A DNA stretch of 64,000 nt from Candidatus Omnitrophota bacterium (lineage in GTDB: Bacteria > Omnitrophota > Gorgyraeia > Gygaellales > JAQTUX01). The notes under the pieces were generated by a model that saw only the letters and a program-made list of their open reading frames with translations, ran no database searches and had not been told where the DNA came from. Within the stretch, counting starts at the first letter, position 1; each line of letters begins with the position of its first letter. The DNA is taken from the NCBI GenBank assembly GCA_028707125.1, contig JAQTUX010000002.1, forward strand, positions 433,872 through 497,871. The letters run 5' to 3'. Below, in pieces: positions 1 through 45,188 of this stretch. A program made the position numbers and the translations under genes.

Positions 1-3000
1 TCTGGAAATTGTCAATTATATTGGTAACACTGCTTATATTGCTTTCCAGCTGGCTTAGCGCGTCTACGACGGATTGCATCTCCAGCACGTCTGCCTGATA
101 TCCGGTCTCTGTTATACCCGGGTCGGCTATGCCCAACCGCTGCCTGCGTTCCAGTTCGGTTTGAAGCGCTTCCCTCTTCTCTGCCAGGTCCTCAACCAGC
201 CGGTTCCAGGCCTGTAAAAGGCCGCTGCCGCCTGCCGCCAGCACCACCGGGTCTTCTTCCCAGGAGGCGATCTCAAGGCCAAGCGCGATACGCAACTGCA
301 TCTGAAGCCAGCCAATAGCGCCGATCGCCAGCGGATTGGTTTCAGTGTCGCCTTCCAGCCAGACCCTGTAGTTCTCGCGCACATACTGGAAGAAGATTTT
401 GTAGCGCATATCATCCCAAACGCGCTTGGCATCCTTTATGACCCTGATGCCGCCCATAACCCCCTGTATCCTTGCCGCGTGATACATAGGCACATACTTG
501 CTGAAGAACTCCTTCTGCATCCTGATATATTTGCCGTATTCGTTCTTGATCCTGGTGTATTCTGCCGCCTTTTTGTTCAACTCCTCAAACGAGGCAATGG
601 CCTTCTTGCGGGAAGCGGGGTCGTTGCCGTTCTTGAACTTATCCTCAATGATCTCCTTGACGATCGGTACCGACGGCGGGTTATCCAGATAGGTCTTGTT
701 GCCGTCCTTATCCATCAGCACCCAATTATGTGTCTCGGTCCCTTCGTCATAGGCGTATTCAACGATGGCCGGCAGCACAGCGGGCTTGCCGTCAATGAGC
801 CCGTCGGCGATAAAGCGCATGTCCCTGGTGATCACCGTGCCGGGCTTGAGCGTTATCTTCAGGCCGTTATCAAACTCAACTACCATCGCCTCCCTGATTA
901 TCTCCATATGGAGCTCCATCAACTCTTTGGCGTCGTTGATCAGGTAGATGCCGGGCAGTTCAGGGAATTGTTTGAAGGTAATGACTTTTGCCAGCGGCAC
1001 CTGCATTGTCTGGCCGCCCTTCAGGCGGGCGCCTTTGACCATAAGCGCATCGTAGTCCTCAGGTTTGACGGCCTTACCGCCCAGGCCGTTCCGCATCGCC
1101 CAGTCAATGCGCGCCATATAAAGGGAAGGTATGACCACACTCCCGCTGTAAGGATTGATGTCGGCGTCATATGCCTCGGCAAAGTTTCCGTCCGACTCGA
1201 TCTTATAGAAGCCGTTGTCATAGCGCAGGACGCTGCCTTTGGCCGCTACGCGCATGTCCCCGACGCCGCTATATGCGGTGATCTCCCCCGGAAGGACCTT
1301 GAGCTCGTTGTCCTTGTCATCCTTGTAGGTTAAGGTATCGTTGCCGTTGATCTCGCCCCCGAAATTAAGCATCGCGGTAAGGAAATCATTGAGCCGCTCA
1401 TAATCTATTATGCCGGGTATTATATAGTCACCCAAAGGCAGCCAGGCCTCGCCTGATGTGGTCTCTGTCTCAAAGCCGTACTTTTCTATGGATTCCTTTG
1501 TATTGGGGAAGAATATCCTTAAAGGAGCGGTGGTGGTAAAGCGCTTTTCATTATATTCGCCGTTTTCATTCTTAAGCGGAACATTTAAGTCCTCCCTGAC
1601 TAATCTGCCGATGACGCTCTCTTGCCCTGTTCTCTGATCTATCTCCCGCACCAGATGATAGCGGTAAGTCGGATCGTAATTCAACCTCGCGTCTATCAAT
1701 GACTGTCTCTGCCACTCTGAAGAGAATGGATAGGCGGCATAAGGGCCGGCCTTTTCCCGCGGCATGCCCTCAAATATATGCTTGATCCACTGGTTGGGAT
1801 CAGGCCCTTCGAAAATGAATAACTTATCGCTCTCCAGGTCATCTACTTCCTTAAACCACTTTATGTCTATGCGCGGGTTATACAGGACAGCGGACGTCCC
1901 TGCTTCAAAGATCTTAAATCCGGACGGCTTGACATTTAACTTATGGGGGACCATCACGCCGCCGTAGTGGCGCAGCTTTCCCATTACCGGCATATTCATT
2001 ATATGGGTAATGCTTGAGATGAGCGATATGCCGGAAAGCGGGTTGAACATACCTTTGGCGAATAAGCCGTATAAGATATTTATCACGTTTATGAAATCAT
2101 AGCCCTGGCCGCCCAGGCCGAATCCCAGGAATACGCTCTTTGCCACCCTCAACTGCGCCAGGGCGCCTGCTGCCTGCGTATCCAGGGTCACCATAAAGCT
2201 CACCGGGTCAAAGGTGATCTCCTCGCCGGCCAGGTATCTCTTGTAATTCTCAAGGTATCTCTTGATATTGTCGCGCGTCTCACTGATGCGCTGCTCAAGA
2301 TATGCCAGGGCGCGCGCCTTGCTTTCGTCAATGGCGAATTTGATCCTGAGTTCTCTGGGGTCTTCGGGCGCCTGCCTGCCTTCGTCATTGGCAATGGTCA
2401 GAGGGTTGTCTCCGGACTTCTCAAGGAGGTTCATCACTGTGGAGGCGAGGAAGACCGACGAATCCTCAGGCGTATAAACATCGCCCCAGGCAGGCACGCG
2501 CCTGTCTGTCTGCGTGGCAAAAGGAAGCGTGTCTTCGAAGGCCATCGCGTCCAGGCTCTTGCGGTATTTATCAACAAGGTCGTCCCTGCCTGCCTTCTTA
2601 TAGAACATCATCGCCTCGATCGTACGTTCGGGGCTGCCCAGGTTAAGCGCGTCTTTCTCTTTAAGCTCCTGCTCCAATTCCTTGATCTCATCCGTAAGCG
2701 CGCCTATCTTCCAGGCGATCTCATCCAGCTCTTCTTTTGTCTTCTTCTTGTCCTTCTGCTGCTCCTTGAGACCCTTGATCTGCCGTTCCTTGAAATCCAT
2801 CAGCTCTTTGCGCGACTTGTTATATGAATCAAACAGCCGCTTTCTCTCCTGACGTCCGGCAAACGCGATCAGCGTGACATCTGCCTCTTTGACCCCCTCT
2901 GCCCTGGTCTTGTATTTCGTGCCCACGCTTGCCTCTGTCTCCAATGCCTGCGCGAGCTCCTCATAGGTCAAGCCGATACCTTTCAATTCTTCTCTGGTCA

Positions 3001-6000
3001 TTGCCAGCGCCGGTATTGCCTGGGCATCGGAATAGAATGTCTTGTCTATCTCGTTACGCGTAATGCCGCCGAAGAACCTCTTCTCCTTTTTATCCGCGAA
3101 CAATCCCATTGCCGCGATCACCTGCCGGGCCTTTATCCCAAAGCTGACCCCTGTCTTATCCTCGTATGCCTCGTAGGCCTTTAACAAGGCGATGGCGCGG
3201 CCGTTCTCCTCAGTCGAGACACCGCCTATCAGGCGCGGCTCTATGAAATTGCCCGCCTTATCCATACGCAGGTCATAGCCCTGCTGCAAGAGCACCGGTT
3301 CCCGCGACATATCTACGCCGCCCAATTCCTCTGCCGTAAACATATCCTTTAGATCGCTCAGGCGCAGCGGCCGGCTCATAACGGCGTTGGTGATCTCCTG
3401 CGCCAAGCCAAGGAACGCGTTATCGCCGGTAGCAATGGTATAGGCGAGCATGCTCAGCGCCAGCGCCGAATCCACGCCTGTCCTGGTCCTGTATATCTCT
3501 ATCCTGCCTGTCTGGGCGTTGAAAGCCTCCGGTATACCTCTGAAATACTGTTTCCTGTCTGTCTTTACGTAATTATTCTCGTAGAACTTAAGATAGAAGG
3601 AAAGCACTGCCTTTGCCTCATCCTTCCTGTCTTTATTGAGCAGCCACATCACCAGCACTGCCTGGTCAAAGGTAAACGCCCTGTTTGCCTCAAGCGCAAA
3701 ACCCGGATGGGACACCCACAGCCCTGTCTTTTCCAGCTTGATGATACCGGCCTCGATCGCCTTTATGCTCTCCTCATATACCTCTCCGGTCTCTTTCCAT
3801 ATGGTTGCGGCACCCGCGTGTGACTGGGCGTTCTTGAATGAGACATCCAGCCACTCCTTGAGCGACTTCCAGTCATCCATTACCTCGCGATAGCGTGCCC
3901 TGAAATTCTTCTCAACCATACCGAAATCCATCGCTGTCAGGTCAGCCGCATTCTCAACAATAGCGTTTATGTCCGTATATACCCTGCCCACAAACGCCTC
4001 TTTCCGGGCAGCGTTAAGATCTTCTGACAGCTGCGCGGCGACAAACAGGTCAAGTATCTCTTTATATTTGGCGATAATGCCGTCCCTTCTCTGCGTGATC
4101 AAGCTTAATTCCTGCCTCTCCTGGGCGCCTATACCCTTATCGTTCTTCTTGTCATCAAGCGCCTTCTTGGCCTTTTCAAGCACGGATGGGGCAGGGAGCA
4201 GGGCCTTTAATTCTTTTACCTTGTTTTCAACGGCCTTCTCTATACCGTCTTTGCCCAGGCGCGCCTGAATGTCCTTGTAATTGTCTGACGGCTGCCACAA
4301 ATCATCCGGCCCTATAGCCCTGGCTGCCAGATCGCCTCTTGCCTGCAGTTCTTTCTTGGCATCTTCTACGTTCGCCTTCATCTCATCAATCTTCGATGCT
4401 TCAACCTGCAGGGGCTGGACCTTTTGTTTAGAAACCGCCTCTTTGGATGCCTTAACTAAATAATCCTCTGGATCAACTTCTCTGCCGTTGATGCCGCCTT
4501 TTCTGATCTCAAAATGTAAATGGGTCTGAGGTACATTATAGGCATTGCCTGTTCTGCCCACTGCCCCTAAGACGTCTGTCTGTGTAACCTGCTGTCCTTT
4601 CTTCACCTTAATTGAATCTAAATGAGCGTAAAGCGTATAGTTTTTGTCCTTGTGTTTAATTATCACTGTCTTGCCATAGTCCGTCTTTGAGCCGGCAAAG
4701 ACGACCTCTCCTTCTAACGCAGGATGCACGTCCGTGCCTTTTTCGGCCTCTATATCAATGCCTTGATGTTTATGGTTGTTCCTGCTGCTTACTCTATAAT
4801 CGCCGAATTCACTTACAATGTCTCCTGCAACCGGCCATGTGTAAATATTATTTTCTACTCTCCTGTCTCTCGCTATGGCGCTGAATACGATCAAATGAAG
4901 CGGTATCCTCCATGTCCCACCCGAAATCTGTTTTGTCCGCGGCGCCAGGGCATCATTCAACTCCTCTATTCTGGCGTTAATGCCGGTTGATATGCGCTTT
5001 AATACCGCCTGGTGCGTCTGCCTGCTCCACTCACCGGTCTGCTCAAGGCCCAGGCCCTTCTGCAGCGCCTTGACCTGAGAAGACAAGAGCTCGGTGTAAA
5101 TGGCGTTTGTCTCCTCATTCAGATATTCGCCGTATAACCTGATGCCGTCCAAGCCGTATTCCTTTTCTGAAGAAGAAACCCTCTTGTTCTCTAACCATTT
5201 ACCCACGATCTCCCGTATGCCGATCACCCTCTGGTCTTTCTTATTGCCGTCCACCTTGAATATATCTGAGTCATCGCCCTGCCATTTCAACTCTTCCAGC
5301 CCGGCCTTCTCTTGTTCCAGCACAAGCAGGTCGTTAAGTTTCTTCAGCTTATCCTCGGCCGCTTTTATGCCGGCATCGTTTTTCTGGGAATCGTATTCTA
5401 ATTTAAGTGAATTGATCTCAAGGCGGGCTTGGATCACCCTCTCTCTTAAGTCCTTAAATTCGATGCCGGCCCTATGCAGCAAGGCCTGCTCGGCAAACAG
5501 CCCCTTCCTCTCATCCATCAATGTATTGGCCCTGCCTTCATAAACGGCGGTCAACTCCTCCCGCAGGTTCTTCCAGTCATCTTCGTCAAGGTTCTCGGTC
5601 AGCTTATCGCGGCCGTGTATCCTGTAGAAGATATTAAGCGCCAGCACGGGGGATTTATCTACGGGATAACCCGCTTCCTTAAGTAAGCTCATCAATATAC
5701 TATCGCTGTCGGATGAGGAAGCGCCGTATTTACTGAAATCAATGGCCAGATCATCAAGCGTAATGGCCTCAAGTTCTGCCTTCTTAAGTCCTGCCTTAAT
5801 GCCCTTTATCTCCTCATCGATCGCCTTTATCAGGCCTGCCCTGTCCTGCGCTGACCTGGCGTCAACTTTTTGTCTATCCTCAATTTCCTCTTCAAGGCCG
5901 GCGATCTCTTTCCTGATTTCAAGCAGCCGCAGATTCTCTCCGGCGGCCCTGTTCTCTTTTACCTCTAACGCCTCTTTCTCTTTATTTAAGGCCTCTATCT

Positions 6001-9000
6001 TCTCTTTGTTGATGCCCTGTTTCAACTGCGCCATCTCTTCATCCAGCGCCTCAACCTGCTCGTCGTCTTTGTTCGCTGCCTTAATAAGGGCGTCCCTGTT
6101 TATCTCAAGCAGCCTGATGTCCTCTTCCGCGGTCCTGTATTCATTCGCCTCCAATGCTGCCTTTTCCGCGGCAACTTCCCTCTCTGCCTTTATCCTGCCT
6201 GACTCTGCCTCAATAGCACTCCACTTCTGGACTAACCTTCTGTACGCGCTGTCTTCGCTGCCCTGCGGATCATTCCAATATTTCCACAGGCCGTTGGCAA
6301 CCTCGCGCGCCGCTGAGCGCTCCTTGTAAGTAGGAAGCTCTGATATGGCCTCTTCCTGGCGGCCGCGCGCCTGCTTCTCTAACTCTGAATACCAATATTC
6401 GCCCTGCTGCCTCTCCTGCTCCGCCTTTTGCCTCTCGCTCAGGTCCTCTTTCCCGCCCAGGGTATAATGGATGAACTGCGGTATAGACGCTCCGGCTATG
6501 GTCTGCGGTAGAAGAACGTGCCCCAGGCCGATGGCGCCCGGAGGAACAATGAGTTCTCCGTCCTCGCTGAACTGTCCCGCGCCTTCCAGGCCGTTTGCCA
6601 ACGCCATTGCCTGCTTACCGCCGTAGTCCTTGAACAGAGGATGGTTGCCCATTGCCTGGCCGGCGTCAATGATCAATCCGATCTCAGCCGAGATCAACCA
6701 CATATGCCACAGGCCGATGTAGAAATCCTTGCCCGCCCGCACCAGAGCCATATAATATCCGTTACGATCCTTTGTCTCTATGGCGGACAGGTCGAATAAC
6801 TTCCTGATGCCCTTGTCCCCATAGAATGCCGCGGTGAGGATTATTAACGCGGGCGCGGCAACAACGGTCAAGGCCGCGGCTATGTCAAATCCGGCAAACA
6901 ACACACCCTTCCTGACGGCGCCGGCCGGTATTGACCCGCCTCTTTCTTCATATATCTTAAGGTAACTGTTACGCAGCTGCGGTATTTTCTTCAGGTTAAG
7001 GGAGATGACTATAATCGCCAGCCGGAACATCTCTTCCAGCGTATACTGCAAATGCAGCCCTGTCAGCAAGCGCTTCATCAGCATATTGCCGCCGACTATT
7101 GAAGGCGGATTGGCGATATTCCAGCCGAACAATGCCGCCAGGGGCCCGGCAACATAATCGCCGGCCAGGGCAAGCACAGCCCTGCCGATAATAAACCTGA
7201 CAATTCCGGAAGCAATAGGAAATGCCGCTTTAGCGGTTGTCCTGATGTTCTTCAGGGCATACACGGCCCGGCCTGCCAGGTCTGTGTTGGACACAGCGCC
7301 TACAGCCAGGTATTTGTCCTCCACGAATTCGGCAAACTGAATATTGGTCCAGATATAGTCAAAGAAGAAGTTCCAGAGCACCGATGCCAGATACGGCGAG
7401 ATAACGCCGAATATGGCGCCATAGAGGATGCCCGGAGCGCCTAAATAAGTCCCGCCTACGACAGCGCCGATCGCCGCCAGGGCCTTTATGTAAGCGCGGC
7501 GGTTAAGCACATCGTACGCGAAACTTAAGAAATCCTTCTTAAGCGGCCTATTATATTCTTTTGATTTTAAGAATCTCTGCCAGTCATCTTTGGTGGCGTT
7601 CATCAAGGCAATGATCAGGCAGCCGGAGAATAACAGTTTGGCGGGCTTGCCGCGGGAAAGGCGGCGGATGTCCTGCGCCAACTTGCCGATACCTAACAAT
7701 AACACTATGGAGGGGAACACGTAAGGAAATACACCGGCGATATAGGCGAGAACGGGAATGTTTGAATGAAGTATTGCTGCCGGAAGCGCTGCTTTTGTGG
7801 AGCCGGCGAACAACTGCAGGCCGTAAGAAAGGACGGAGATGCTTGTGATCAAACCAAATGACTCTTTGAGGAATTTGCGCGCCTGAGAAAGGTATCCCCT
7901 GTCAGGGCCCCTGATCCCGCCGTGCTCCACGCGCTGCTGCGTGACGCGCGCTGCCTGCGACAAGAACATTACAGAAGTATAAACGAAAGGAATGGATAAC
8001 AGAAATGCCGCGATACCCACGATTGTCAGAGGATTGGCAAAGGCGTAAAATGCCATTGCCGCCACCGGAATCAGGGCTACAACGCTCATAGCCATTGAAC
8101 CGCCGGCAGTAGCGCTGCCGGGAATGCGCTCAGAAGCGGAGCTGGAGGCCTGCTCCCGGCGCTCAGCATTTACAATACCCAGATCTTTGAATACATCGGC
8201 GGGGATAGTCGGATAGATTGCGCTGCCGCACAATATCCTGAGGAATCTTTCCTTATCCTCTGACGAGATATTCCCGGGAGCGCCTTTATAAAAATCAGGG
8301 CCCTTGATTATGGCGGAATGCAATATATCCTGAGCAGCATAGCACACAACAACATAGAAGCTCTTTACGGCTTTGTTCTGAGGAGACGCCGTATTACGTA
8401 TCATATCCCAGGACGCTTTGACGGCGCACTTCAACAAGGCCTTGCCCGGCTTACTGATCTTCTGCGTATCCTCTGCTTTAAGGTTTGCTTTGACCCAACC
8501 GTTCATAATAAACATATCTAAAAATTCGGAAAATGCCTGCACGGCAAGCGTTAAGTCATTGGGCATCACATAAATGCTGCCGCCTCGCAGCAGAAGCCAG
8601 ACGGCTGAGGCCTTCAACTCCTCGGGAAGACGGCCCTCCCTTATCTCTTGAGGAATCTGTTTCTTCTCTTTATATGCCTCCATATATTGATTGCGGAGAC
8701 GCGCGTACTCTGTGCCTATTGTGATCTCTCTATCGCCGCTCTTGACCCGCTTTGTTGACCTTATAAGACGCTCCTCAACCCAGCTGTAAAATTTGTCCTT
8801 ATCCCTGTTTTTATATAACAGATCCTTCTTTTCCCTTAGCCACGCATTCTCCCAGAGATACTGCTTTACCAGGTTATCTATGTAAGCCGGGCTTAAACCG
8901 GATGACAGTATCGCGGTATTTACCAATTCCCTGACCGTCTTTGAAATCCGAGGGCTCTTCTGCACCGCAATTTCAACGTCTAACATACCATTCAAAAATT

Positions 9001-12000
9001 CAGGAAGAATATGAAATTCGGAATCCGCCCTGTCTTTCTTCTCCCGCCTCAATCCCTCTATATAAACATTTACCACTTTGTCTATATAAAATACCTTTTC
9101 AATAATATTATAGAGATTTGTGGTCTTTAATTCCTTTGACTTGGCATGTATCGCCTGTTTTTGCGCCTCACCTTCAAGGCCGCTTAATTCACACCAGTCC
9201 TTGATCAAGCTGACAAGCACCTTAGATGTGATCCTCGCGACCAATTCCTGTTTATTAAGCGTCCTCTTAGCGGTAAGGAACCCGAATAATCCTCCGCCGT
9301 TGCCGTTCCCTGAAGAGCTTGCCTTTGGATTATTTTCCGCTAACGGCGGGGCAATGCTTATGTTAACCCTGGGCTGATCTTTGGTGCCGTTTTGTATATC
9401 TATATGGATCTGCCGCAGTACATTTAATATCGCGGTTGCCAGATCAACTGTCTGAGAAAACACATCCATGCCGTCCAGGTCCTCAACAATGACCTCTTCC
9501 GGCATATCCAGCTTCCCGGAGGGAGTCAGGAAGGAAAATTCCAATCTGCCTCCGTTGTTTACGGCGGCCCTGGGTACCACTATACCTGCCTTGCCGGACG
9601 CGAAAAGCTCGCGCGCGCCTATGTGATCAAATCCGGGGAACATCGCTTCTATTTGCGCCGCGTGCGATGCTAATAACGGATGCAGCGTTACGCACGAATG
9701 GTCTAAATGCGGATTGTCTCCTATGGTTACCAGTATGGCATCGTTAAAATAATGCTGCATCTGATGTGACTCATAAAGCGCGTCATTTACAAAGGCGAGC
9801 GAGGCCAATTTAGTAATGGTATATTTCTCCTTCTGGTCTATCCTGATCAACGCTTCTGATATGGGATTGCCTTCCCTCCACCTGTTCCTTACCCTTACAT
9901 ACCTGAAACACTCCACCCCGTTGTCTCCCGCGAACATCACACCCATAACGACGAAGTCAAAATCATCAACGGTAACATCAAGCTGCCCTAATGAATGGGC
10001 CAAACCGCTGAATCCCTGGCTTTGCCTGAATGCCTGCAGCAACTCGTCTGTCGTATTCTCTTCCCGGATATTGACTACCGCGGTCCTGTCCGTATTAAGG
10101 CCGACAAAGTGCCTGCCGTTCCTTAAGCTTATAATTAACTCTTTCAGATCTGCTACCTTGGGGCTGTCATTGCTGTCTACCAAAGTATTATCTAAGTCAA
10201 TAGAGAATATCACCGGGATCTGAATGCCCTCCAGGATGCTATTTATCTGTTCGCGCATATCCTTCTGTGATGCCATACCAAGACGCGTGAGAAGCCAATT
10301 AGTAACAGATGAGGAAGATGATTCTCCCTGTCTCTCCTTATAGGCCTGTGTGTATTCCTCCCTGTCCTTTTCGCGTAAGCCGACATACAAGGCAAGCAGG
10401 CCAACCCCGAAATCCGCCCCCTCTGCGTGGTCCATAAACCACTCTGAGATCAGCGTCAGCGCGCGCTCTGTTTCTAAGAGCGCCGGCCCCTGGTCATTCT
10501 TGCCTAAGGCCTGCAGCTTATTCCTGATGACGGCCTTAAGATAAGCCGGCAGGCCCAGCAACGCGCCTTTTTTGAACGACTCCGCGCCTATACTGTGGTC
10601 AACGCCGAATGTCTCAAAATCTATCCGCTCATTCTCCCCGTGGAATTTCATCTTAAATAACACCCAACGTATAAAGTTTACATATGATTCTATCGCGGGG
10701 CCGGTAATGCCGCTGTTAAGAGGCCTGCCGTTCTCTAAAGTAACTATTTCCACCGGGCTATTATCTAATAATTGCTCTAAAGAAGGCATTGCCCTGCGGA
10801 CCGCGTATCTAATGGGATATGTGGTGGTTAAAATACTGAAATGCCTTCCTGCCAGTTCTCCCTCCTGAATCTTCATTTCCTTCTTAAGGGCATAAGACAG
10901 CGCGATCTCGTCGCCTTCCGGCACGTTATGGCCTCTATCGCGAAGGATACCCTCCAGCTTCATTATTTTATTGCGTATTATATCCACTGCGGAAGACGCC
11001 ACGGTCACCCGGTTCCTGCCGTTTTCCTTTGAAGCATACAATGCCTCTTTGTCTGCCTTATACTCTAATGTTGCCCGGTCATTGCCATGTTCCGGAACAG
11101 CGGCAACTCCCAGGCTTATAGTAACGTTAAGGGCCTCGCCTTTATATTCTATCTTGAGGTTCTCAACCGCCGCCCTTATTCTCTCGGCAACTATTTCCGC
11201 GCCTTTGGCATCAGTTTCGGGCAGTATTACCGCCATCTCTTCGCCGCCGTAACGCGCTACGAAATCATTGGGACGTACGGCATTCTGAATAGCCGCGGCC
11301 ACCGCCTTCAGGACTTCATCCCCTGCCTTATGGCCGTGTGTATCATTAAATCTCTTGAAATGGTCTATATCGATCATTATGAGTCCAACAAAATAACCTA
11401 CGCCACGGTGAACGGCGCGTTTGAGCTGCTTATCCAGCTCGGAGTCATACGCCCTCCTATTATTCAGGCCTGTCAAGGCGTCTGTGGATACCAGCCTTTC
11501 CAAGCGTTTTATCTTGTTATTAAGCGCCAAGTAAGTCGCGGCTGCTCCCATGACTATGCCGACTGCCACACCAACCACTACCGCCGAAGAACTTGGCTTT
11601 TCCGGCACAGCCACGCCTGATACGGAGTTTACCTGATCAGGCGTGGTCTGTGTGGTTGCCGTCGATGCGGTAGACAGGGATATGGTTGTTGCGGCTGAGC
11701 TGGACCTTGCCGCGGATGGTGTCTGCGTCTGTGCCTCCGACCTCTTCCCAGGATTCTGCTGTGCCGTTACGGGCGTAGACGCGGCCCGCGCCATCGTCAA
11801 ACACAAGGAAGATGCGGGTCTTTCCGCTGGGTTCCTTTCCCGCTCCGAATACTGTCCTGTCCTTGCTGAAGATGACGAGGTGGTCAAACTGGAACTCTGC
11901 GAAGTTGATCCTGCACATTTTAATGCACCTCCTTCAATTAAATAGCGGGCGCGCTCGGTGGGGGTCAGGCCCCGGAGGTATCGGGCCACCAAAGCAACGC

Positions 12001-15000
12001 CCGCTATTATATTTGCCGCTGTAATCACGAGCCCAGCCACGGGTAGGGTGATCCCTGGCGGCGAACTTGTTCTTTCTAATAATTCAAAGGCATTCCTGGC
12101 CTTTTCTATCCTCTGCTCATCGGTCAATCCTTCTTCTTGCGCCGCGGTCAGATTTACCATTACCGGAGAGACCTCTTCAATGACATGCGGCCTGGTAAAG
12201 TAGGCGTCATCCTGCGCGCCCAGGTAATTTCTGCACCATGCCTGCGTGACCATAGTTATGCGAACAGCATTGATGTACGGAAAGCGCTTATACACGAAAT
12301 CAGTTGCCCTGTAAATATCTTCGGAATTAAGAGGACCGTAGCCCAAATGCGTTGTGCCTTTAAGGCTAGGGTGGGTATGCGCCATTTCCAGGAGGTCTAC
12401 GAACTGCACGCCTTGTTTCTCATACAATTCGGCCAACCACTGCATTATATAATAAACAGGGATCGCGTTTCTTCCGCCTTCAATGAATCTGGTATGTGTC
12501 GCGCCCCCATATACAGCCGTGATCATCGCGACTTCGGTATTCTGGGTATTCCTCCTCTTGTTGCACTCTTTATGAAGAGCCCACAAGCGGACTGCCCTGC
12601 CAACCTCTACCTCTGCCGGTATGATCCTTATAACTGAACGCTGATGAAGTATAAGCTCATCTACATCTGCTCTGCTTATAATAGCTTCTCCGTCAAACGT
12701 AGTGGATTTCCCGTCTTTTCTGATTAATATGGGGTCAAATTCCGGAACTTCGTTATGAGGGACTGTTTTGAACAGCGAACCTGCGTATACACGAATTCCA
12801 CCTGCTGTTTGCTCTGTATTCTGCTCAACAGCGACAGGTGGACTGGTTTCGTAGCGCTCTATTACCGCGGAACTCGCAACAAGAACAGCGTCAGCCGCCC
12901 TTTGTAACTGTTCAACCGGCGGCAGGATCGGCGCTATATAGGCCTTTCCGGTGGTCGCACTGCTGGAACCACTGTTTCCGTTACCGGAACCTGAACTTAC
13001 ACTCTGGGCGCCTTGGCCTCTGCCTGTATTTTCCGCAGGCAGGCCTGATTCATTCGCGTTCTTGCTGTCTGCTACTGCACTTCCTGCACCTCTACGATCA
13101 ATATGTTTGCCCGCTTCTGGCTCGACGACCTGGCTTTGGGCAAAGCCAGCCGCCCCGCTTATCCCGCCTGCTCCGGTAGCGCTTGAGCTTCCGCTCAACA
13201 TGGCGAACATCTGGTCAAGCGGAATACCCATACCCACCGTGGCTGGCATGGGAAGTATTATCGGGCTCTGTAAGATTGTCTGACTTGCGGCCGAACCGGC
13301 TGTATTAGAAGGACTGTTACCTATATTATTGCCGCCTGTGGGCGCCTGAGGCATACCCAACGGTTGCTGCGAGCTGGCAGGCGTGCCTGTTGGTCCATCC
13401 TTGGGCGCCTGTTGGCTATTCTTTCTGGCTTTATCCCTGCCCGCAGAGAAAAATGACTTAAGCATGTACTGAGAACGGACCAGTATATCTGTATTCCCCT
13501 CAACTGTATACCGATACGGATGATCACCTTCAAGCGCAACCAGGGCATTACCTTCCGGAATCTTAAATTCACCTACGATTTCTCCTCCCTTGTACCAATT
13601 CACACCCATATGGCCGACTATTTCCGCGGCTTCATTTGTTCTCAAAACACGGAATTCTCCGCTGTATACTGATGCCCCCTTAGGATATACATCAACGACC
13701 AACGTCTCATGGCCTGTTCCCGGAGTTACATACAGGTACCAATGCGCGTCATTATTTACCAACTCTACTTCCCATGCCGGGTCAAATATCTTTAATAACT
13801 GGCCGAATACAGTGTTGCGGGTCATGCAGGCAGCGCCATCCGGTAAATACATATTAATATGCCCGTATAATGATTCCACGACCTTCTCTAACGCGTCGAT
13901 CCTGGTTATCGCGGTAATATCTTTTTGTTTCTTCAGGTTACTCAACTCACTTTCCGCGATGGCAAGATCATCTTCGGCATGAATGTCTTTAAATTGACTT
14001 ATCGCCTTATCATATAAATCTATCGCGCCAATTATGTCCCCTCTTTCTGCCAACACCCTGGCCTTCTCAACTTTTGCTTCTGCCGTTGAGCTGGAAACAG
14101 GGCCTACGGGCGTAAGGGCGATGCTGCCGTCCTGCTGAAGCGCTATCCTGAAGAAATGCTTTAAATCAGCGGTGCTGGCAAGGGCCTCCGGCGGTTGAAG
14201 CGCGCCGTTAACTATCGCCCCTATTTTCAGCTCTTCTCTGAGTACCAGGGGCTGCCCCTTATAATCGTCTATCGGGGTGCCGACAGGTATTATTTGCACC
14301 GGCCTGATATTCCACGGTTGGATATCCATCTCGCCGTTATTATCCAGGGTTACCTTAAATTCATTGTCTTCTTTATCAGCGGCCATTACCTCTTTTGTCA
14401 CTGATTTTATGCTGCCGTCCTTGCCCTTCAATATATTGATCTCGCCCTGCAGGATAAGCGGATGCTCATCGTCGCTGCTGATATTCTCTCCCTGCTTGCG
14501 GGTTATCTTTAAAGGCATAAATACAGTATGGCCGTCTTTGCCTGTTTCGCTTACAATCCAGGGATCACCCTCATTATCTACAAGGTCTATGGAATCAACG
14601 CCTGTCTTTCTCTCAAAACCGTAAGGAAGATATCCTCCGGCAGCGGGCCTTAACACCTTGCCGTCGTCCAGTTTTATCTCTGCAAGTATTGTTGCCTTAT
14701 CATCGTCAAGGCACAACCAGCCGTTTATCGCCGCTGCCTGCTGCCTGGCCTTTTTCTCTATCTGCGGCTCGGTCAATTTATCCTTATTCTGCTTAGCGTC
14801 ATTAACGGCGTTCAGCGCCTCCCGCGCCATTTCAACGCTCACCACGCCCTTATTAGCCGCGATCTTATCCATCATTTCATCTATTGCGGCTATGCCTGTC
14901 CTGGCTGCCGCGGGAAGGCCTTTAACCGTCGCCGCGATGCCCAATTTCCCAAACCTGCGCATATTCTGCCACAATAAAGGATTGATCCTCAATATACCCG

Positions 15001-18000
15001 CGTCTAACTCTATTATCTGTTCGGCGCCCTCTGCCAGGAACTCAACCCCCGCGGGCAACTGAGCGCCGCTTATGCCTAATTCCTTGAACAGGGCGGGGAT
15101 CAACAACTGCGTCCCTTTCTCAAAGCCCCTGGCCGTAATATCCTTACCGTCAACCTTGAGCGGCTGTTCAGCGATAACAGCGGTGGCCCTTGATATGGCC
15201 CTGCCGTCCAGGAACTGGAAGCCGTCCTCTGTCACCATTATCTGCATGCCCACGCGGAAACCCTCTGCTCCGGGTATTGAGAGGAACGGCTGGAGAGATA
15301 CTATGTCTCCGTTGCGGACGATGCCGGATAATTCAACCCTGTCGTCATAATGACCCATTGGGAAGCTGTGCCTTTCCTCGCTGCCGAATACCTCATGTAT
15401 CTTCTGCCAGAATCCGTAGCGGCTGCCCAGGCCGCGCCTGGAGGCGTTAAGTATCCTTCTCTCCTCCGCCTCCAACCCTTCTAATGCCGCCTCTTTTTCT
15501 TCGTCGCTGAGGCCCAACAGAGGTATTGATTTCTTCTTAAGCCTGATCTGCACCAACGCCTCGCCGCCTGCCATACCGGCAGCAGCCAGGCCCGAAAGGT
15601 CTTCCCAGGTAGGCGTAAAGGGATTCCTGAGATTATCGAGCACTGCCCAGAGCGCGTCATACTGCCTCAAATGCGCGTCTTTCTGAGTATGCGTGAGCCC
15701 GCTCAAACTCTCCTCAAAGCTGTCTCTGTTACCATTACTGTAATCTATCTCTTTAAGCTGTAGTTTAGCGCCTTCGCCCTTGACCACCGCGAAGACATAG
15801 GACTGGTCAACGCGCTCGCCGCCCACATCAACAACCGCGTCTAATCTAAAGGTATCGCCCGCCCTCAAATACCTGTCCGGGCCCTGGTAACCCATGATCG
15901 AGGTATTCCTTCCGGAAGATGCCGATGTATCCCGCTGCACGACTATCGCGGGGGCATCCTCGGCAGCGCTGCTGGAAGAAATCCCGTAGACCTCGTTTAC
16001 AAAGGCGCCTCTTAATTGCGCCCCGGTCATATTATTGTCTTCTGCGAACACGGCAACGACGCTATCCTTTGCCGCGTTGGATACCTCGTATGCCCGGCCT
16101 TGCAGGTCAAGCTGCTCCTGTGTCTTGAACTTAAGGCGGGATAATTCATAGTTGTGGGTAATGCCTATTGCCTGGTCGGCGGAAAGGCCGGCAACCGTCT
16201 CAAACACATTGGTGCCGGGGTCCTGCTTTGCCCTGTGCATCAAGCGCATAAAGTAAAGCGAGATCCTGTCATCTATGCCTGTCATAAGTTCGGACGCCAT
16301 ATTAATATAATCGGCCGCGGAAATGGCGCTTAACGCCTCGGTTATGACTTCGTTAGGATTATGCTCTTTCAGGTCAAGTGAATCAAGGTCCCAATCTTCA
16401 GCAGGATTGCCCATTCTTTGTTCTAACGCGCTAAGGAAAGGACGCGTGTAAGGATTGTTCCTCAAGGCATCCACGCGCGCCTTGTGCAGCTTCCTGGCGT
16501 AATCTACATCGGTATCACCCGGCATTCTGGTGACAGCGGCCTGTCCCAGCACGTTTTTAACTATGGAGTGGTCAAGTTCGTGAATAACATCGTGGATGCC
16601 TGTGGGATTCAACGAGATAGAGACGCTGCCGCCATCGTATCGCCTGGAGAACAGGTCTTGTCCGGCGTCTATCTTTATCGGCCTGGCCTCGTTCGGCTGG
16701 TTCTGCGCGGTTACCATACGGCCCTCATCCCAGAGCGTGCCGTATTCCACAAGCTCATAGGACTGCGTATCCATAAGCTGCCCGGCAGCCGTTGCGCCGC
16801 CGCCTAAATGCTGCGTAAGATAAGTCAGGGCAATGTTTCGGCCGTCTTTATTTACGTTCAGATTCAAAACCGGGATAAGCGCGTTATATACGCTCTTTGT
16901 GTCGTATTCCGCGCTGTTCTCCACGTTTCTTTTTACCTCAGCCAGCTTAACTTCGGCGTCATCCGCGCTCATACCTGTGCCTATAAATTGCTGTTTATAT
17001 GCATCGTGATTGCTTGCCAGGAAATCTAATGCCATCCTGCGGCTGATATATCCCTTATTCCTGCCCAGCAGTTCAAACTCCGCCTTCTGGCTGTAATGAT
17101 GCAGGGCGATCTCATCCAGGCCAACCATCTTCTTCAGCCCCCTGATATTCGTGAGCTGCTTTTCCCTCTTCTTAAGCTCCTTTAGTTTGTCCTTCCTGGT
17201 CTGGGCGTCCATCGCCGAGTTCTTAGCGATCTTGTCCCTTTCCTTAGCGAGCTGCTTCAATTCCACGCTGAACTCAGCGTCCTTAAACTCGCCATCTTCT
17301 TTCTGCAACTGTTCCCTTAATATGCCTCTGAGCTCTCCTGCCTTGCCCAGGCCCAGCCGCGATAAGCTGTACCAGTTCAACTGCAAGAGGCCTTTTCTAA
17401 AGAGACCCATATCCTGCCTGTTCACGCCGGCCAGCTCTTCTTCAAGCGCGCGCACGCCCATAACGCGCCTTGCCTCTGTTTCAAACCACTGCATCCTCTG
17501 CAAATGGCGGCTCTGGCCGCTGGTGAGGTATTGCGCGTAAGAATGCAGCATCTTTGCCTCTGCGTTCTCAAGCTGAGGACGCAAGGCGCGCGCTAGGGCC
17601 GACCTCCAGGTCACTTCATCCTGATAAAGCGAGCCGCCCGGAAGGGTATAGGCCGCTAAATTCCCCACCTCCTGCATAACGCTTCTGCTGAATGTCTCAT
17701 CCCCTGCCAGGCACTCTTCAACAATCGCCTGCGTATTTACCTTAAAAGGCAGGATGTGCTCATCCGCAACGTCTGAATTATACGCGCTGAAACCGTCATT
17801 GCTGATAATGATGACTTTTCTGCCGGTCATCGCCCCTGCTATCATCCTTGCCGCTCCGTCTTCGCCTTTAAGTTTCGCGGCGACAAACAGATTGGCTGCC
17901 TCCGCCCTTATGGGGTTGGTTTCCGTAGAGGCGCGCGCCTGTATCTCGGCGAGTTTCGCGTGCCTGTCTTCAGGCGCCGCTGCCTGATACTCTGCCTCCA

Positions 18001-21000: not shown

Positions 21001-24000
21001 TCAACGTCCTGCCCGGGTCCAGCATAATGCCGCTTATCTGCGCTCCCCAGCCCAGGGAATTCACCAGAGGACGATACATCTCATCCTTGGCGATCACGGT
21101 TGAGCCGGCAAGAAAACCAAGTGTGTTTTTAGTCAAGCCGGTCATTTCATCAAAACCCCTGCCTAATGCCTTTGGATAATAAACGGCAAGGTCTTTTGCC
21201 TTTACGGCAAGACCGCGGCCGTAATCTAATCCCTTATATACCCGCAGTAACAGGTTGTGGACTATCTGCGGATTATTTTTTATGGCGGGGATAAGAAAAT
21301 TCAGCGCCTTGCCGCCTGCCCATGACACTCCTGCCAGCGGAAGAGTGACCTGCAGGCCCTTAAGATGCAGGGCTAATTGGCCTGATAAACTGTTCGGCAG
21401 CTTCCAGGCATCTTCTTTGCCGCGGTTCTCTATGCCGTTAAGAATGTATCCCGCGGCCGCATTAAATGTAACTATCTCCGCGATCTTGAATAGCGCCTTG
21501 GCCTCTGCGCTATACTTGCTTACAAGGTCCATTGCCAGCCGAGGAGTGTTGAGCGCGATGACGGTCGCGGCGCCGTAGCCAAGCGACCTTCCGGCTTCAG
21601 ACCAGCTGTCTAAACTCCAATCCTTTTCATAGAGGCCTTTCTCCGCGTAGCCGATAACAGGGGCTGCCAAGGCGTTAAGCGTTATCTGCGGATGCTTCGT
21701 GACAAAACCTGTAAGCTTCGCGGGTATGCCGCGGCCATACCACAGGCCGTTGGCTATGCCGACGGTGGCTGCGCCGTAGGCCCCTATCTTTCCTATGTCA
21801 GATAAACTGTCTATACTCCAGTCATTTCCGAATACGCCATTTTCAATATAGCCAACGACAGGAACGGCTAAGGTGTTAAGCGTTGCCTGCGGGTGCTTGG
21901 TGACAAAACCGGCGACATTCGCGTAGAGCTTCGGCGCCAATTTCATTATGGCCGTTCTCCAGCGATACCCTCCCAAAGCCGGCAGAGTGACCATAAGCCC
22001 TTTAAGCGACAGATCTATAAGATCAGAACTGCTGTTCGGCAGCTGCCAGGCATCATCCTGGCCGCGATTCCATATTCCGTTTACTCCGTATCCGCTGGCG
22101 AGGGTGCCCGCGGCCGCGCCTGTGGTCCAGAGCAGGCCTTTACCGGTTTTGACTAAAACAGGGTATTGGCTTAAGAACCCGAACATCTTACCTGGAATAT
22201 TGCGTCCGGCATACAGCAGGTTGGCTGCCACTACAGTCGCGCCGCCATAAGCGAAGGTCTTGCCGGCGTCAGACCAGCTGTCCATGCTCCAGTCCTTATC
22301 ATACAGGCCCTTTTCCGCGTAACCGACAACAGGGACTGCCAAAAGATTAAGCGACAACTTCGGATGAGCCGCGGCGCTGCCGCTCACCACGCCTATCTTT
22401 GAAATACCCTTGATTATAATGCCGTTCTTATCAAGTATCTGCCGGATTTCGGGAGTATTGATACCTTTTGTAATATTGTGCTGGGCCTTGACTGCCGTGG
22501 CCGTCCTTAAAGCGCTGTCTCCGGTCTTGAAACCGGCTTTATAAGCGGCCTTTAACAACGGCTTTGTAATGGCGTTGGCTGCTTCCTGCACGTTCTCTCC
22601 GCGCATGCCGCCGGCAAAACCAGAAGCAAATTTCATTATGGGCTTTCTTAACAGATACGTCGCCAAAACCGTCAAGGTAATCGGCAGCCCCTTAACAGAC
22701 AGGTCTGCTATATCCGAGATGCTATCCGGCAGGGCCCAGGCGCCATCCTGCCCGTGATTCCATATACCATTCACTGTATAGCCGGCAACAAGATTACCTG
22801 TTGCTACCGCGCTGCTCCAGAGCAGCCCCTTGGCAAGCTTGCCGGAAACATTATATTTTCTGGCGAAGTCCCCTATCATCCCGGGTATGCCGCGGCCATA
22901 CCACAGGCCGTTGGCTATGCCGACGGTGGCTACGCCGTAGGCCCCTATCTTGGCTATGTCAGACAAGCTGTCTATGCTCCAGTCGTTTCCGAATACGCCC
23001 TTTTCCGCGTAGCCGATAACCGGAACGGCCGCGATGTTAAGCAACGGCCGCGAATGGAGGCCGGCCCAGTTCATTACGCCGGCAGACATCCTTCCTACGG
23101 CGCTCGCATTCACCCACTTAATGCCTGCCTTTGCCCAGCTGCCAGCATAACTACCCGCGCCTTTCAATATCTTCCATGTGCCGCCAGCCAGGCCCCTGAC
23201 AGCAGATACGCCTAATCCCTGATATAGATACGTCTCCGCGACAGTGCCCACGCTTTCGCCTATTGTCATCGGCCGGCCCAGGTATTGCGCGCTGTTATAA
23301 TGCCCGTAGCCAAGGAAGGCGCTCGTCCAGAAAGGAACTCCCGGAGCGCTGGTCGCGCTCTTTATCAGATTACCTGTTGCCGTGCTTGCCCTGTATAAGA
23401 AGCCGGCTCTGCCCGTTATCTCCGCTCCCGCAGCCCCCCAACCCAGGAATTTAGCGCCCAAAGAAGTGCCCATCTTGCTGCCGGCGCCCGGGAGCAGGAA
23501 TGTCGCCGCCAGCAAACTATCCTCTCCGAATGATAAAGGCCTGCCCTGATATTGCATAGATGCCCAGTTAGCCGCCACATCTGTGACGGCAGCGGCTGAA
23601 GGGATCATCAATCCCCTCGCGCCGACACCCAGCTTAAGCAACTGGCTGCCGTAATATACTTCAAGAAATGTCTGTCCTGCCTTGCCCCAGTATCCGATAC
23701 CCCTCACCCAGGGATTTTCAGATTGCAATGCGGAATTCATCGGGCTGTATCCTTTTGTCCAGGCATCTTTCCCGTAGGCGCCGACGTAGTAGGCATTATT
23801 GAACCAGTAAGGCGCGGCATCAGAACCATGCAACCTGCCTAACGTCTTATCATAGGCCCATACGATCCCGCCGATGCCATACTCTATGCCGCTCTGCCCA
23901 TACGTCAGGCCGGAGTTCAAGGCGCTGCCTACCGTGTTTATCGCAGCCACTATTTCCTGAGAACCGCCAAGGGTGTATAACTTCACTGATGTGCCGTCGG

Positions 24001-39244: not shown

Positions 39245-40093
39245 TCACACCTCTACCTTGCTGAACTTCATAATTAAAAATATACCTATTATATAAAGCG
39301 CGGCGCCCCCGCCTAAAAGCATCTGCCCCATCTGGTCGTTAAGCATTACCTCAAAAAAGGCGTTGTTCATGGTATAGACAAAGAACCCGAAGGCGATCGG
39401 CAGAATACCCATGATCGTGCCTTGGAGCTTCCCCTGGATGCAGAGCGCGTTGACCTTGCCTATAAGCTTGTTCCTTTCCCTTATGGTAGTCACCAACTCA
39501 GAAAACGTGTCGGTAAGGTCTCCGCCGGATTCCCTGGCCACAAGTATCGCCGTATTGATCAGATCAAGCTCATCGATCGGCATCCTCTTCTTAAGATTGT
39601 TCAAGGACTGCTCAAGCGGCATACCCACGCGGTTCTCCCTCACCACCAGCCCGAACTCCTGAGATACGGGCGCGGGCATCTCTTCAACTAATGCCTCAAA
39701 TGCCTGAAGCAAGCTCAGGCCCGCCTTAAGGGAGCCCGAAAGGATCATCAAGGCGTCAACCAGCTGCTGGGAGAACATTTGCCTGCGTATCCTCTCCATC
39801 TGCTTTATAACCAAAGTAGGCACTATGAGCCCGATGAAACCCGCAGCAGCGGCAGCGAGTATATTACGGAAAACCAAATACGCCCCGAACGCCAGGACAA
39901 CGGGTATTAATACATCAAGGACCATGATCTTGTTAATGGGCAGGTTCAAAAACATCCTGTCAAGCTTAGGCGCGTATTGTTCCATGCGCCTCTGGCGCTG
40001 CCTTTCATACAGCTCTACTGCCAGCGGTATGCACTCATTAATAAGCAGCCCCACCGAACCAAAACTCAGGATAAATATGGCGAATTTGATCAT
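39245..40093 (-). CDS. tadB: Tad pilus inner-membrane platform protein TadB (T2SS-F-like)
   Basis: 282-aa track ORF with a GspF-like domain and TM segments at both ends. There is a 1-nt gap to tadC. Confidence 0.8.
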   Translation of the reverse strand: MIKFAIFILSFGSVGLLINECIPLAVELYERQRQRRMEQYAPKLDRMFLNLPINKIMVLDVLIPVVLAFGAYLVFRNILAAAAAGFIGLIVPTLVIKQMERIRRQMFSQQLVDALMILSGSLKAGLSLLQAFEALVEEMPAPVSQEFGLVVRENRVGMPLEQSLNNLKKRMPIDELDLINTAILVARESGGDLTDTFSELVTTIRERNKLIGKVNALCIQGKLQGTIMGILPIAFGFFVYTMNNAFFEVMLNDQMGQMLLGGGAALYIIGIFLIMKFSKVEV

Positions 40094-40452
40094 TCCTGCT
40101 CCTCTTGTCCGTCTTCCGGTTGTGTCGCGCTTACGTATTCTCCGTGCAACCTGTCGTAATCCTCAACCTCTGTAAATTTGTTGCTATGCATTAGTTCCGA
40201 AGATGCTTCATCCGGCCCGTCTACGTTTACAGCGTTGCCATATAACCCACTTAGAACTTCGCTGCTGATCGGTTCAGAGGCCCCAGGGTCGGTTGTCACT
40301 TCATACTGCCAGCCGAAACCGATCGCGTCTGCGGCAGTCCGCCACCTTCCCTGCATAGCGCGCTTAAGGTAGACCTGCATGGTCATGACCGCCGCGACCA
40401 TCACGATCACCAACACGCAATACTCAATCGCACTGATACCTTGGTTTTTCAT
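40090..40452 (-). CDS. Flp/TadE-type class III prepilin-like protein (MKNQG/ISAIEY…)
   Basis: Carries the G/XXXXEY prepilin-peptidase motif followed by a hydrophobic helix and 'MQVYLKRAMQGR', which is shared with the paralog array. Confidence 0.65.
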   Translation of the reverse strand: MKNQGISAIEYCVLVIVMVAAVMTMQVYLKRAMQGRWRTAADAIGFGWQYEVTTDPGASEPISSEVLSGLYGNAVNVDGPDEASSELMHSNKFTEVEDYDRLHGEYVSATQPEDGQEEQE

Positions 40453-43228: not shown

Positions 43229-43256
43229 TTTATCTCACCTTCCATCTTTATGATCC

Positions 43257-45178: not shown

Positions 45179-45188
45179 CTTTCCTTCC

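Follow-up and report, generated by a model that had tools for sequence, protein, structure and literature searches.

A giant C39-headed open reading frame of at least 12,779 codons directly behind a Tad operon in Candidatus Omnitrophota

A stretch of 64,000 nucleotides from Candidatus Omnitrophota bacterium (assembly GCA_028707125.1, contig JAQTUX010000002.1, positions 433,872 to 497,871), called the window throughout, contains a giant open reading frame (ORF) on its minus strand, which we compare here with the giant proteins already reported from this phylum. Among 116 species representative genomes of Velamenicoccia, Seymour et al. 2023 (PMC10066038) found 77 with ORFs of more than 20 kb, in addition to Tad complexes. 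The same work cites a giant of 39,678 amino acids (aa) from V. archaeovorus, which is expressed with the Tad complex on prey attachment, and whose peptides were three-fold commoner when the cells were attached to larger ones than when they were unattached; its proposed role is to attach to a host cell and lyse it. West-Roberts et al. 2023 (bioRxiv 10.1101/2023.11.21.568195), using a limit of more than 30,000 aa, described 46 genes of more than 90 kb from Omnitrophota. Their products universally have an N-terminal C39 domain near a signal peptide as well as many transmembrane (TM) helices, they usually have SecA_DEAD, and the 'Archaeovorin' type carries GGDEF and HAD. Before these genes lies a secretion locus (gspD, gspE, gspF, rcpC and a Rotamase_2 peptidyl-prolyl isomerase, PPIase), and PilZ genes come after them. 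With a limit of at least 10,000 aa, Nielsen & Lui 2026 (bioRxiv 10.64898/2026.06.07.730766) catalogued 5,761 proteins and reported that 93.8% of complete Omnitrophota genomes encode at least one of this size; the C39 group ('PF03412 architecture cluster') is one of their two largest clusters, and secretion or pilus genes flank 13 of the 14 largest. A first-pass annotation of the window, made from the sequence letters, had called proteins above 10,000 aa extremely rare in bacteria, which holds across bacteria as a whole but not, given these figures, within Omnitrophota. Members of the phylum have peptidoglycan and have kept the complete pathway for it, and the only cultured relative, V. archaeovorus, preys on an archaeon without murein.

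Judged by its sequence, the window protein is a member of this already published class on all testable features except SecA_DEAD. It shares with the C39-headed giants a single ORF of more than 10,000 codons, a signal peptide with C39, many TM helices, GGDEF, a mostly unannotatable and poorly conserved sequence, and an operon encoding Rotamase_2, RcpC, secretin, GspE, GspF and class III pilins directly before the gene. It differs in that its first 12,779 aa contain neither SecA_DEAD (found in most giants, not universal, and possibly encoded past the window edge) nor a P-loop, and in having PG_binding_1 and an intact M23 domain, both unmentioned in the main texts of West-Roberts et al. and Nielsen & Lui. 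Compared with the named giant subtypes, the same 12,779 aa are without glycosyltransferase, methyltransferase, NUDIX, HEAT or dockerin content. In searches with Pfam and NCBIfam they show only C39, M23 and GGDEF where 'Archaeovorin' content was looked for, and no glycosyltransferase, glycoside hydrolase, methyltransferase, NUDIX or HEAT domain; for the 'Dockerin-type', neither PF00404 nor PF18884 was found and there are almost no repeats. The 39,678-aa protein of V. archaeovorus LiM, of the 'Archaeovorin' type, comes from the same phylum and is likewise a multi-TM giant with a Tad complex in the genome, GGDEF and peptidase domains, a likeness known from these shared domains alone. The prey of V. 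archaeovorus is archaeal, whereas the M23/PG_binding_1 pair of the window protein points to bacterial murein. Among GTDB representatives, the window protein is at most 41% identical in a conserved module and essentially unique elsewhere.

The giant gene is one genuine uninterrupted coding frame. A six-frame scan found a run of 38,340 nucleotides without a stop on the minus strand (window positions 2 to 38341), which translates into 12,780 codons with 0 stops, while the next longest open run in any frame has 2,808 nucleotides. The first-pass annotation had reached the same result by hand; its coordinates, its frame and its start at the ATG near 38338 were right, as was its statement that at least 12,779 codons are cut off by the window edge, and the computational check for in-frame TAA, TAG or TGA that it proposed returned zero. 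The first ATG, at 38338, is the second codon of this run; it has AGGA about 7 nucleotides upstream and lies 9 nucleotides behind the stop codon of TadC. Since the frame leaves the window at position 2, the length of 12,779 aa is a lower bound. Per 3-kb tile, 0 stops are present in the giant frame versus 44–88 in each other frame of the same strand; at about 0.06 stops per codon, an open run of this size has a chance of about e^-790. All 13 tiles of the ORF show GC1>GC2<GC3, with a GC3 of 0.52–0.69. The frame is thus coding along its whole length and not just open. The GC3 of the giant gene (0.62) compares with 0.57–0.66 for the Tad genes.

Tandem repeats and high-identity direct repeats are absent from window positions 1 to 38400, and since only diverged repeats occur (21.3–23.1 kb), a repeat-driven mis-assembly is unlikely. 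The independent Logan assembly SRR22315508 is 100% identical to window positions 34601 to 46038, and a second one, SRR22315506, is 99.2% identical to positions 37974 to 39730, so that the junction between TadC and the giant ORF is spanned by both. A minus-strand Tad/type II secretion system (T2SS)-like operon, which starts at about 56.1 kb, has the giant ORF as its last gene. All five of the homologues of gspD, gspE, gspF and rcpC and the Rotamase_2 PPIase are present on the same strand (38347–56127).

The N-terminus of the giant protein looks like a Sec signal. The N-terminal helix (aa 9–27) has a hydropathy peak of 1.91, with four K/R before and one after it, and homologues keep the sequence FLPEQVAQA followed by VEY, an AxA-like site at which signal peptidase would cleave. 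The signal is closely followed by a C39 domain. The alignment to the C39 profile spans positions 46–126 of 133 only, with the catalytic Cys N-terminal to the aligned part; this Cys was assigned from homologue conservation, and C131, H217 and D233 are invariant in six sequences. Both the N-terminal secretion anchor and the cysteine peptidase signature of the first-pass annotation are therefore borne out. C39 domains are processing peptidases that cleave after double-glycine leaders.

Relatives of this N-terminal part are widespread in the phylum. The first 1,500 aa had five protein matches, and both of those with a source name are Candidatus Omnitrophota C39-domain proteins. A profile of the first 273 aa identified at least 112 tblastn-confirmed loci in GTDB species representatives, with identities of up to 41%; the identity of the N-terminal module to homologous loci is 30–41%. 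ORFs and neighbours were counted for 80 fetched loci out of the 112. By their titles nearly all of these are Omnitrophota, with a minority of metagenome-assembled genomes (MAGs) labelled Planctomycetales, Ignavibacteriae and Deltaproteobacteria. In 76 of the 80 loci the homologous ORF stays open to the end of the fetched DNA or of the contig, over as many as 3,611 aa. The C39-headed ORFs of L015, L033, L056 and L071 stop 381, 2,139, 2,761 and 958 aa after the match, showing that the N-terminal module also heads ordinary-sized proteins or interrupted genes. Of the 65 loci with at least 2.5 kb of DNA upstream, 50 have a TadC homologue there on the same strand, and the whole Tad operon order recurs in related loci. 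TadC is up to 63% and TadZ/A 66–70% identical to Omnitrophota loci; the closest TadC is that of L083 (ENA ERZ1286166 contig_28, 2.16 Mb; 10001–25631), in which TadB and TadC have 282 and 298 aa, the same lengths as in the window. Past about aa 400, the giant protein shows a patchy likeness to other large Omnitrophota ORFs (aa 2,851–3,300, 5,700–6,750 and 10,146–10,670), which fits the reported mosaic, fast-diverging nature of the giants. No rRNA or ribosomal-protein marker is present in the window.

Profile and sequence searches with Pfam, NCBIfam, PHROGs and PDB over the full 12,779 aa recognised four families only: Peptidase_C39, GGDEF, PG_binding_1 (sub-threshold) and Peptidase_M23. In the HMMER/Pfam tiling proposed in the first-pass annotation C39, GGDEF and M23 were matched, with PG_binding_1 just below the threshold; NCBIfam and PHROGs contributed nothing beyond these families, and the PDB sequence search returned GGDEF and M23 only for all three tiles. 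The GGDEF domain matches WspR/PleD in the PDB (6e-38). Its GTP/metal-binding motifs DALTGLxNRR and DxDHFKxxND are intact, and an I-site, RPND (RxxD), is located at the canonical spacing of five residues upstream of the signature GGEEM. The diguanylate cyclase is probably active and product-inhibitable, and the synthase of cyclic di-GMP (c-di-GMP) named in the first-pass annotation stands as a domain, with its activity predicted. With membrane-bound cyclases of the WspR/PleD type it shares the full-length domain, the motifs, the I-site and a TM helix directly before the domain; it differs from them in the GGEEM signature, in having no recognisable sensor domain and in being embedded in a giant chain.

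The peptidoglycan hydrolase of the M23 type that had been proposed near the end of the chain could be confirmed (E 7e-29), its activity again being a prediction. All zinc-binding and catalytic residues are present: H11191-QGI-D11195 (HxxxD), the His of YAHL (about aa 11,241) and H11273-L-H11275 (HxH). Sequence matches in the PDB are DipM, Pgp3 and ShyA. The domain is closest to the murein DD-endopeptidase/LytM group and could cut peptide cross-links of the bacterial wall, and the M23 type together with the PG-binding domain points to bacterial murein. Membership of the M23 group (1e-29), the HxxxD, the catalytic His and the HxH are shared with LytM/M23 enzymes that have coiled-coil or membrane partners, such as ShyA, MepM, DipM, EnvC-FtsX and Pgp3; a further likeness is the membrane module, the long charged helical stretch and the PG-binding domain that come before the M23 domain of the window protein. 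The LytM/M23 enzymes, however, are stand-alone proteins of 250–650 aa, whereas here the domain makes up 1% of a giant polypeptide. No homology between the membrane module and FtsX was seen (no Pfam match; the fold search was uninformative). The charged linker between the module and the PG-binding/M23 pair is probably a coiled coil, as had been suggested before, judging by its composition (helix-rich, 41–42% charged).

Other motifs named in the first-pass annotation fared less well. Repetitive beta-rich segments had been listed; one diverged block (aa 5,083–5,673) and Gly-rich stretches (aa 400–800 and 4,800–5,600) do exist, but self-BLASTP showed the protein to be essentially non-repetitive apart from this block. 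The block consists of three to four diverged copies with a unit of about 75–230 aa (identity 41–61% at the aa and 61–87% at the DNA level), lies in a Gly-rich region with beta-strand propensity and matched no known family. The HExxH motif occurs once, as HELDH at aa 7253 (0.14 expected by chance); no zincin family matched around it, and it was rejected as a metallopeptidase domain. For HAD the match to motif I is good (DLDNT, aa 9381), but chance alone would give 2.2 occurrences of DxDxT in the giant protein and aa 9,340–9,680 had no support from Pfam, NCBIfam or PDB, so that HAD was rejected as a domain. A possible divergent M24 'pita-bread' fold is aligned over positions 6–207 of the 208 in PF00557, with Xaa-Pro dipeptidases at E 0.04–0.13. 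A weak match to the lambda tape-measure protein (E 0.023) had no PHROGs support and was dropped. The last 400 aa of the window translation had no relatives in JGI metagenomes.

Hydrophobic segments were located with Kyte-Doolittle windows of at least 1.6, a crude method, and according to the published giant-protein studies TM predictions on Omnitrophota giants are unreliable. Of the twelve windows found, two overlap, so that about 11 hydrophobic helices can be counted; they form four clusters: aa 9–27, aa 6,379–6,455, aa 8,767–8,937 and about 6–9 helices in aa 10,072–10,560. The last cluster corresponds to the polytopic membrane domain described in the first-pass annotation. The second helix of the pair before GGDEF is followed by four K/R. 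The distribution of Cys is uneven: four, including the C39 nucleophile, in aa 28–6,378 (6,351 aa), 14 in aa 6,456–10,071 (3,616 aa), one in the last membrane-helix cluster (aa 10,072–10,560) and none in aa 10,561–12,779 (2,219 aa). Fifteen of the 19 Cys fall within aa 6,456–10,240, which is 30% of the length (P ~1e-5). Cys density changes at the TM clusters; GGDEF, an enzyme of cytoplasmic type (as the HAD-like and M24-like sequences possibly are too), lies in the Cys-richer middle, and the wall-directed domains lie in the Cys-free tail. The Cys distribution, the TM clusters at its boundaries and the domain types thus support a threading of the chain, and suggest that it runs outside, inside and again outside of the inner membrane.

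The membrane module itself was found in other proteins. An exhaustive HMMER search with aa 10,092–11,291 returned more than 13,000 M23 relatives and seven homologues of the membrane module (P0006, P0007, P0008, P0013, P0032, P0066 and P0077; rescored E 5e-60 to 3e-28), with the conserved motifs PYLxSVLWNFF and FHMWLISxEIGLV. A word-indexed search with aa 10,001–11,300 had no match, and one with the module profile found P0032 only; the prefilter of this method misses relatives that are recovered by exhaustive HMMER and by the DNA-pattern scan behind the 112 loci. All seven homologues are located on short contigs, the five that have a source name are all marked as partial, and these names include Omnitrophota and 'Pacearchaeota'. 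The latter label, Candidatus Pacearchaeota archaeon, belongs to P0007 and P0008 (MCK5617074.1 and MCK5605442.1), which fill contigs of 5.3 kb and 3.8 kb; they are probably mis-binned bacterial (Omnitrophota-like) giant-gene fragments.

SLT and/or lysozyme domains are located 70–400 aa after the module in P0006, P0007 and P0008, one homologue has a thioredoxin and no hydrolase at this place, and the window protein has PG_binding_1 and M23. From these domain combinations, it seems that the module serves as a platform in the membrane on which exported heads, most of them wall-cutting, are mounted. What is new here is modest: the sequences suggest a conserved membrane module with a swappable wall hydrolase, and a Cys-based outside/inside/outside layout. 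It might also be possible, and we propose this tentatively, that one chain physically links an exported surface region of about 6,000 residues, a cytoplasmic c-di-GMP synthase and an exported M23 head on a previously undescribed polytopic module, with swapped SLT or lysozyme heads in other giant ORFs. If this were true, such a threaded chain with swappable heads would be a modular trans-membrane 'muralytic cassette' that couples cytoplasmic signalling to wall attack on bacterial, not archaeal, hosts.

Taken together, we consider it likely that the window holds an Omnitrophota giant gene, the last in a Tad operon, of the class of envelope proteins headed by a signal and C39, whose threaded chain would serve attachment and wall digestion together with the Tad pilus. 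The gene is a single coding frame that starts 9 nucleotides behind TadC and shares the codon usage of the operon. The N-terminal signal would lead to Sec export of the N-terminus over the inner membrane, placing C39 and about 6,350 Cys-poor residues outside the cytoplasm. By hydropathy, domain types and Cys content, the chain would re-enter through the helices near aa 6,380–6,455, so that aa ~6,460–10,070, with the diguanylate cyclase and the HAD-like and M24-like sequences, would lie in the cytoplasm. It would leave the cytoplasm a second time via the polytopic membrane module (aa ~10,072–10,670) and carry outside a charged helical stalk bearing the PG-binding domain and M23, with the predicted ability to cut the peptide cross-links of the wall. 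Going by the literature on relatives, the protein and the Tad pilus may form a surface attachment and wall-digestion apparatus acting on a host or prey, and the giant protein would be coupled to PilZ-type effectors through c-di-GMP from its own GGDEF domain. An Omnitrophota-like, envelope-anchored, wall-attacking protein, as proposed in the first-pass annotation, agrees with the homologues and the literature, with the function as a prediction.

A number of observations weigh against this reading. More than 95% of the 12,779 residues have no family match in Pfam, NCBIfam, PHROGs or PDB; SecA_DEAD (PF07517) was not matched in them even at E<=1, and they contain no Walker A motif. The GGDEF signature ends in Met and not in the Phe of GG[DE]EF. 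By crude hydropathy, a literal count of the strong peaks, and with it the helix parity, would put the GGDEF domain outside. The structure models are of low confidence, with a pLDDT of 32 for aa 27–900 modelled with five homologues and of 51 for the all-helical model of the membrane module with its seven homologues, and a Foldseek search of the latter against the PDB had no match at E<=0.001. Window positions 1 to 34600 had no match to an independent assembly, and the exact 50-mer of positions 1 to 50 was found neither in GTDB genomes nor in JGI metagenomes. In L083, the C39-headed ORF has 1,876 aa and is followed by ORFs of 491, 653, 46, 1,079, 389 and at least 2,758 aa; several of these overlap by 20–35 nucleotides and the last has a weak Peptidase_M15_2 match, so that the string either represents a giant gene that indel errors have interrupted or is split in nature. 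Finally, the target of M23 could be the cell's own wall.

This last point leads to the alternative that survives best, although we regard it as rather unlikely: the protein could be a housekeeping scaffold of the inner-membrane envelope, in which M23 and the PG-binding domain remodel the cell's own wall, for passage of the Tad pilus or of the giant itself or in division, and GGDEF regulates the Tad pilus, with no prey involved. The nearest M23 relatives are self-wall enzymes or regulators (DipM, Pgp3, ShyA, MepM, EnvC and NlpD), yet the window M23 keeps all catalytic residues, unlike EnvC, NlpD and DipM. By analogy, a membrane module, a stalk resembling a coiled coil and a LytM domain in succession bring to mind autolysin control of the FtsX-EnvC type, the phylum retains a complete peptidoglycan pathway, and dedicated wall-opening enzymes are common in secretion and pilus machines; a self-directed hydrolase does not, however, explain 12,779 or more residues, of which about 6,350 would be exported. 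The thioredoxin in place of a hydrolase in one module homologue is contrary to a purely lytic cassette. On the other hand, host-dependent lifestyles in the phylum go together with giant ORFs and Tad loci, and the three-fold increase of giant-ORF peptides in attached cells of V. archaeovorus (PMC10066038) also counts against a housekeeping role.

The translated product could also be a polyprotein, cut by C39 or other proteases into separate secreted, membrane and cytoplasmic proteins, which would be compatible with either role and which we judge unlikely. C39 domains are generally processing peptidases with double-glycine cleavage, and the catalytic triad is invariant across the homologues; however, a C39 domain outside the cytoplasm would be out of reach of the cytoplasmic parts, and cleavage sites were not identified. 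A cytoplasmic-type GGDEF and a periplasmic-type M23 would easily fit separate products, and the homologous region of L083 is called as separate ORFs, but the TM clusters lie exactly at the borders between Cys-poor and Cys-rich regions, as expected for one threaded chain. The same possibility was raised by West-Roberts et al. (10.1101/2023.11.21.568195).

Two further explanations are very improbable. A metagenomic assembly that is chimeric or collapsed, or a relic that has no function and is not a translated gene, might be suspected from the uncultivated source, the interior (1–34600) unmatched in independent assemblies and collections and the lack of homologues for most of the protein, but a chimera or relic would not hold 12,780 codons open where other frames close about every 16 codons, and the uniform codon-position GC, the absence of mis-join repeats, the 5' junction confirmed by two independent assemblies, the same architecture in 76 of 80 relatives and the interior segments with homologues in large Omnitrophota ORFs (aa 2,851–3,300, 5,700–6,750 and 10,146–10,670) all speak against it. 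A repeat-built adhesin or RTX-type toxin (compare the Chlorobium chlorochromatii giants, LapA, SiiE and MARTX), exported by a type I secretion system (T1SS) with C39 in the apparatus, would share the very large size, the N-terminal C39-like domain and the Gly-rich regions, but there are no tandem repeats beyond one small diverged block and no Pfam matches to Ig-like, cadherin, RTX, dockerin or TSP3 domains, a fully secreted T1SS substrate could not have several TM clusters and a GGDEF of cytoplasmic type, and the neighbours in the window are Tad genes, with no ABC transporter, membrane fusion protein (MFP) or TolC near the giant ORF. A product of nonribosomal peptide or polyketide synthase (NRPS-PKS) type was likewise rejected, as Pfam and NCBIfam matched no A, C, KS or AT modules.

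The operon that ends with the giant ORF begins with the Rotamase_2 PPIase, followed by RcpC/CpaB, a secretin-TonB_C protein, TadZ-TadA, DUF192, a 532-aa helix-turn-helix (HTH) protein and small pilin-like genes (Flp, TadE, class III signal), and then by a 435-aa protein, a 934-aa TadG-like protein, a Flp-like protein, TadB and TadC (Table 1). The T2SSF E-values for the TadC/TadB pair are 3e-13 and 1e-16. The secretin (52701–54311, minus strand) combines Secretin (7e-46) and T2SS-T3SS_pil_N with a C-terminal TonB_C (5.5e-16); this fusion is unusual for the RcpA/GspD type and suggests peptidoglycan anchoring or energy coupling. A second fusion, of 719 aa (50532–52691, minus strand), joins a ParA/MinD-like TadZ/CpaE part (aa 5–174) to a TadA/CpaF T2SSE ATPase (aa 367–647); it is 66–70% identical to partial copies in L057 and L079, and the DUF192 gene (50191–50532) comes directly after it. 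The 532-aa HTH protein (48467–50065, minus strand; local GC 0.44) has only weak transposase-type HTH matches (HTH_Tnp_Tc3_2, IS481/IS630/IS3 N-termini). Homologues with 23–42% identity occupy the same slot between ATPase/DUF192 and the pilin genes in at least 10 Omnitrophota loci, so that an inserted transposase was rejected and the protein is a conserved operon member, possibly a regulator.

The right flank (56314–64000) has a GC content of 0.38–0.46 and a GC3 of 0.38–0.56, compared with a GC of about 0.50–0.55 and a GC3 of about 0.6 in the Tad and giant genes. It encodes a TPR protein, a GT2 glycosyltransferase, a 783-aa spermidine-synthase-like protein, tRNA-Glu(CTC) (61561–61637) and a 763-aa NHL-repeat beta-propeller. 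The composition step at about 56 kb could mark the Tad and giant genes as a separately evolving or acquired unit.

Table 1. Features of the giant ORF and of the operon before it, with their positions in the window.
Feature	Protein position (aa)	Window position (nt)	Strand	Basis and remarks
Giant ORF		2..38338	-	at least 12,779 codons; window cuts 3' end; no in-frame stop, coding signature in 13/13 tiles
Signal peptide or signal anchor, MFIDWRKKIWIKAVALLVVAVFLPEQVSWA followed by VEY	1-30	38249..38338	-	hydropathy, homologue conservation
Peptidase C39-like domain	~105-255	37574..38026	-	PF03412 E 5e-9, 36.5 bits (cut-off 22)
Internal repeat block	5,083-5,673	21320..23092	-	self-BLASTP E down to 7e-64
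Transmembrane pair	6,379-6,455	18974..19204	-	hydropathy 1.69 and 1.97
Possible divergent M24 'pita-bread' fold	7,416-7,703	15230..16093	-	PF00557 E 0.0036, 17.5 bits (cut-off 23); unconfirmed
Transmembrane pair	8,767-8,785 and 8,919-8,937	11528..12040	-	hydropathy 2.30 and 2.17; directly before GGDEF
GGDEF diguanylate cyclase	8,951-9,110	11009..11488	-	E 1e-47, 162 bits; TIGR00254 7e-50
HAD motif-I-like FSIDLDNTLV	9,377-9,386	10169..10222	-	motif only
Polytopic membrane module	~10,072-10,670	6329..8125	-	hydropathy and homologues
Helix-rich charged linker	~10,630-11,050	5189..6451	-	41-42% EKRDQ; composition/sequence only
PG_binding_1	11,072-11,111	5006..5125	-	E 5e-4, 20.6 bits; just below 23-bit cut-off; probable
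Peptidase M23 (LytM-type)	11,190-11,290	4469..4771	-	PF01551 E ~1e-29, 103 bits (cut-off 28.7)
Tail	11,291-12,779	2..4468	-	Cys-free, no family (Pfam, NCBIfam), continues past window
TadC		38347-39243	-	T2SSF match
TadB		39245-40093	-	T2SSF match
934-aa TadG-like, Flp-like, TadE-like and small pilin-like genes (class III signal peptides)		40090..47582	-	weak Tad, TadE, Flp_Fap, Class_IIIsignal matches
HTH 532-aa, DUF192, TadZ/CpaE-TadA/CpaF ATPase, secretin-TonB_C, RcpC/CpaB, Rotamase_2 PPIase		48467..56127	-	profile matches

Few predicted polypeptides in biology are as large as the giants of Omnitrophota, and the overall picture of them that was published between 2022 and 2026 is unchanged by the window protein. 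It adds a repeat-poor ORF that is at least 12,779 codons long and has an intact murein endopeptidase and PG-binding end, whose activity is predicted, and with this it provides more direct sequence evidence of wall cutting than most catalogued giants. Whereas the cultured relative preys on an archaeon, the M23 end suggests that the target is bacterial or is the wall of the cell itself. Both the Cys compartment map and the recurring cassette of membrane module and hydrolase offer testable handles on the insertion and function of these giants.

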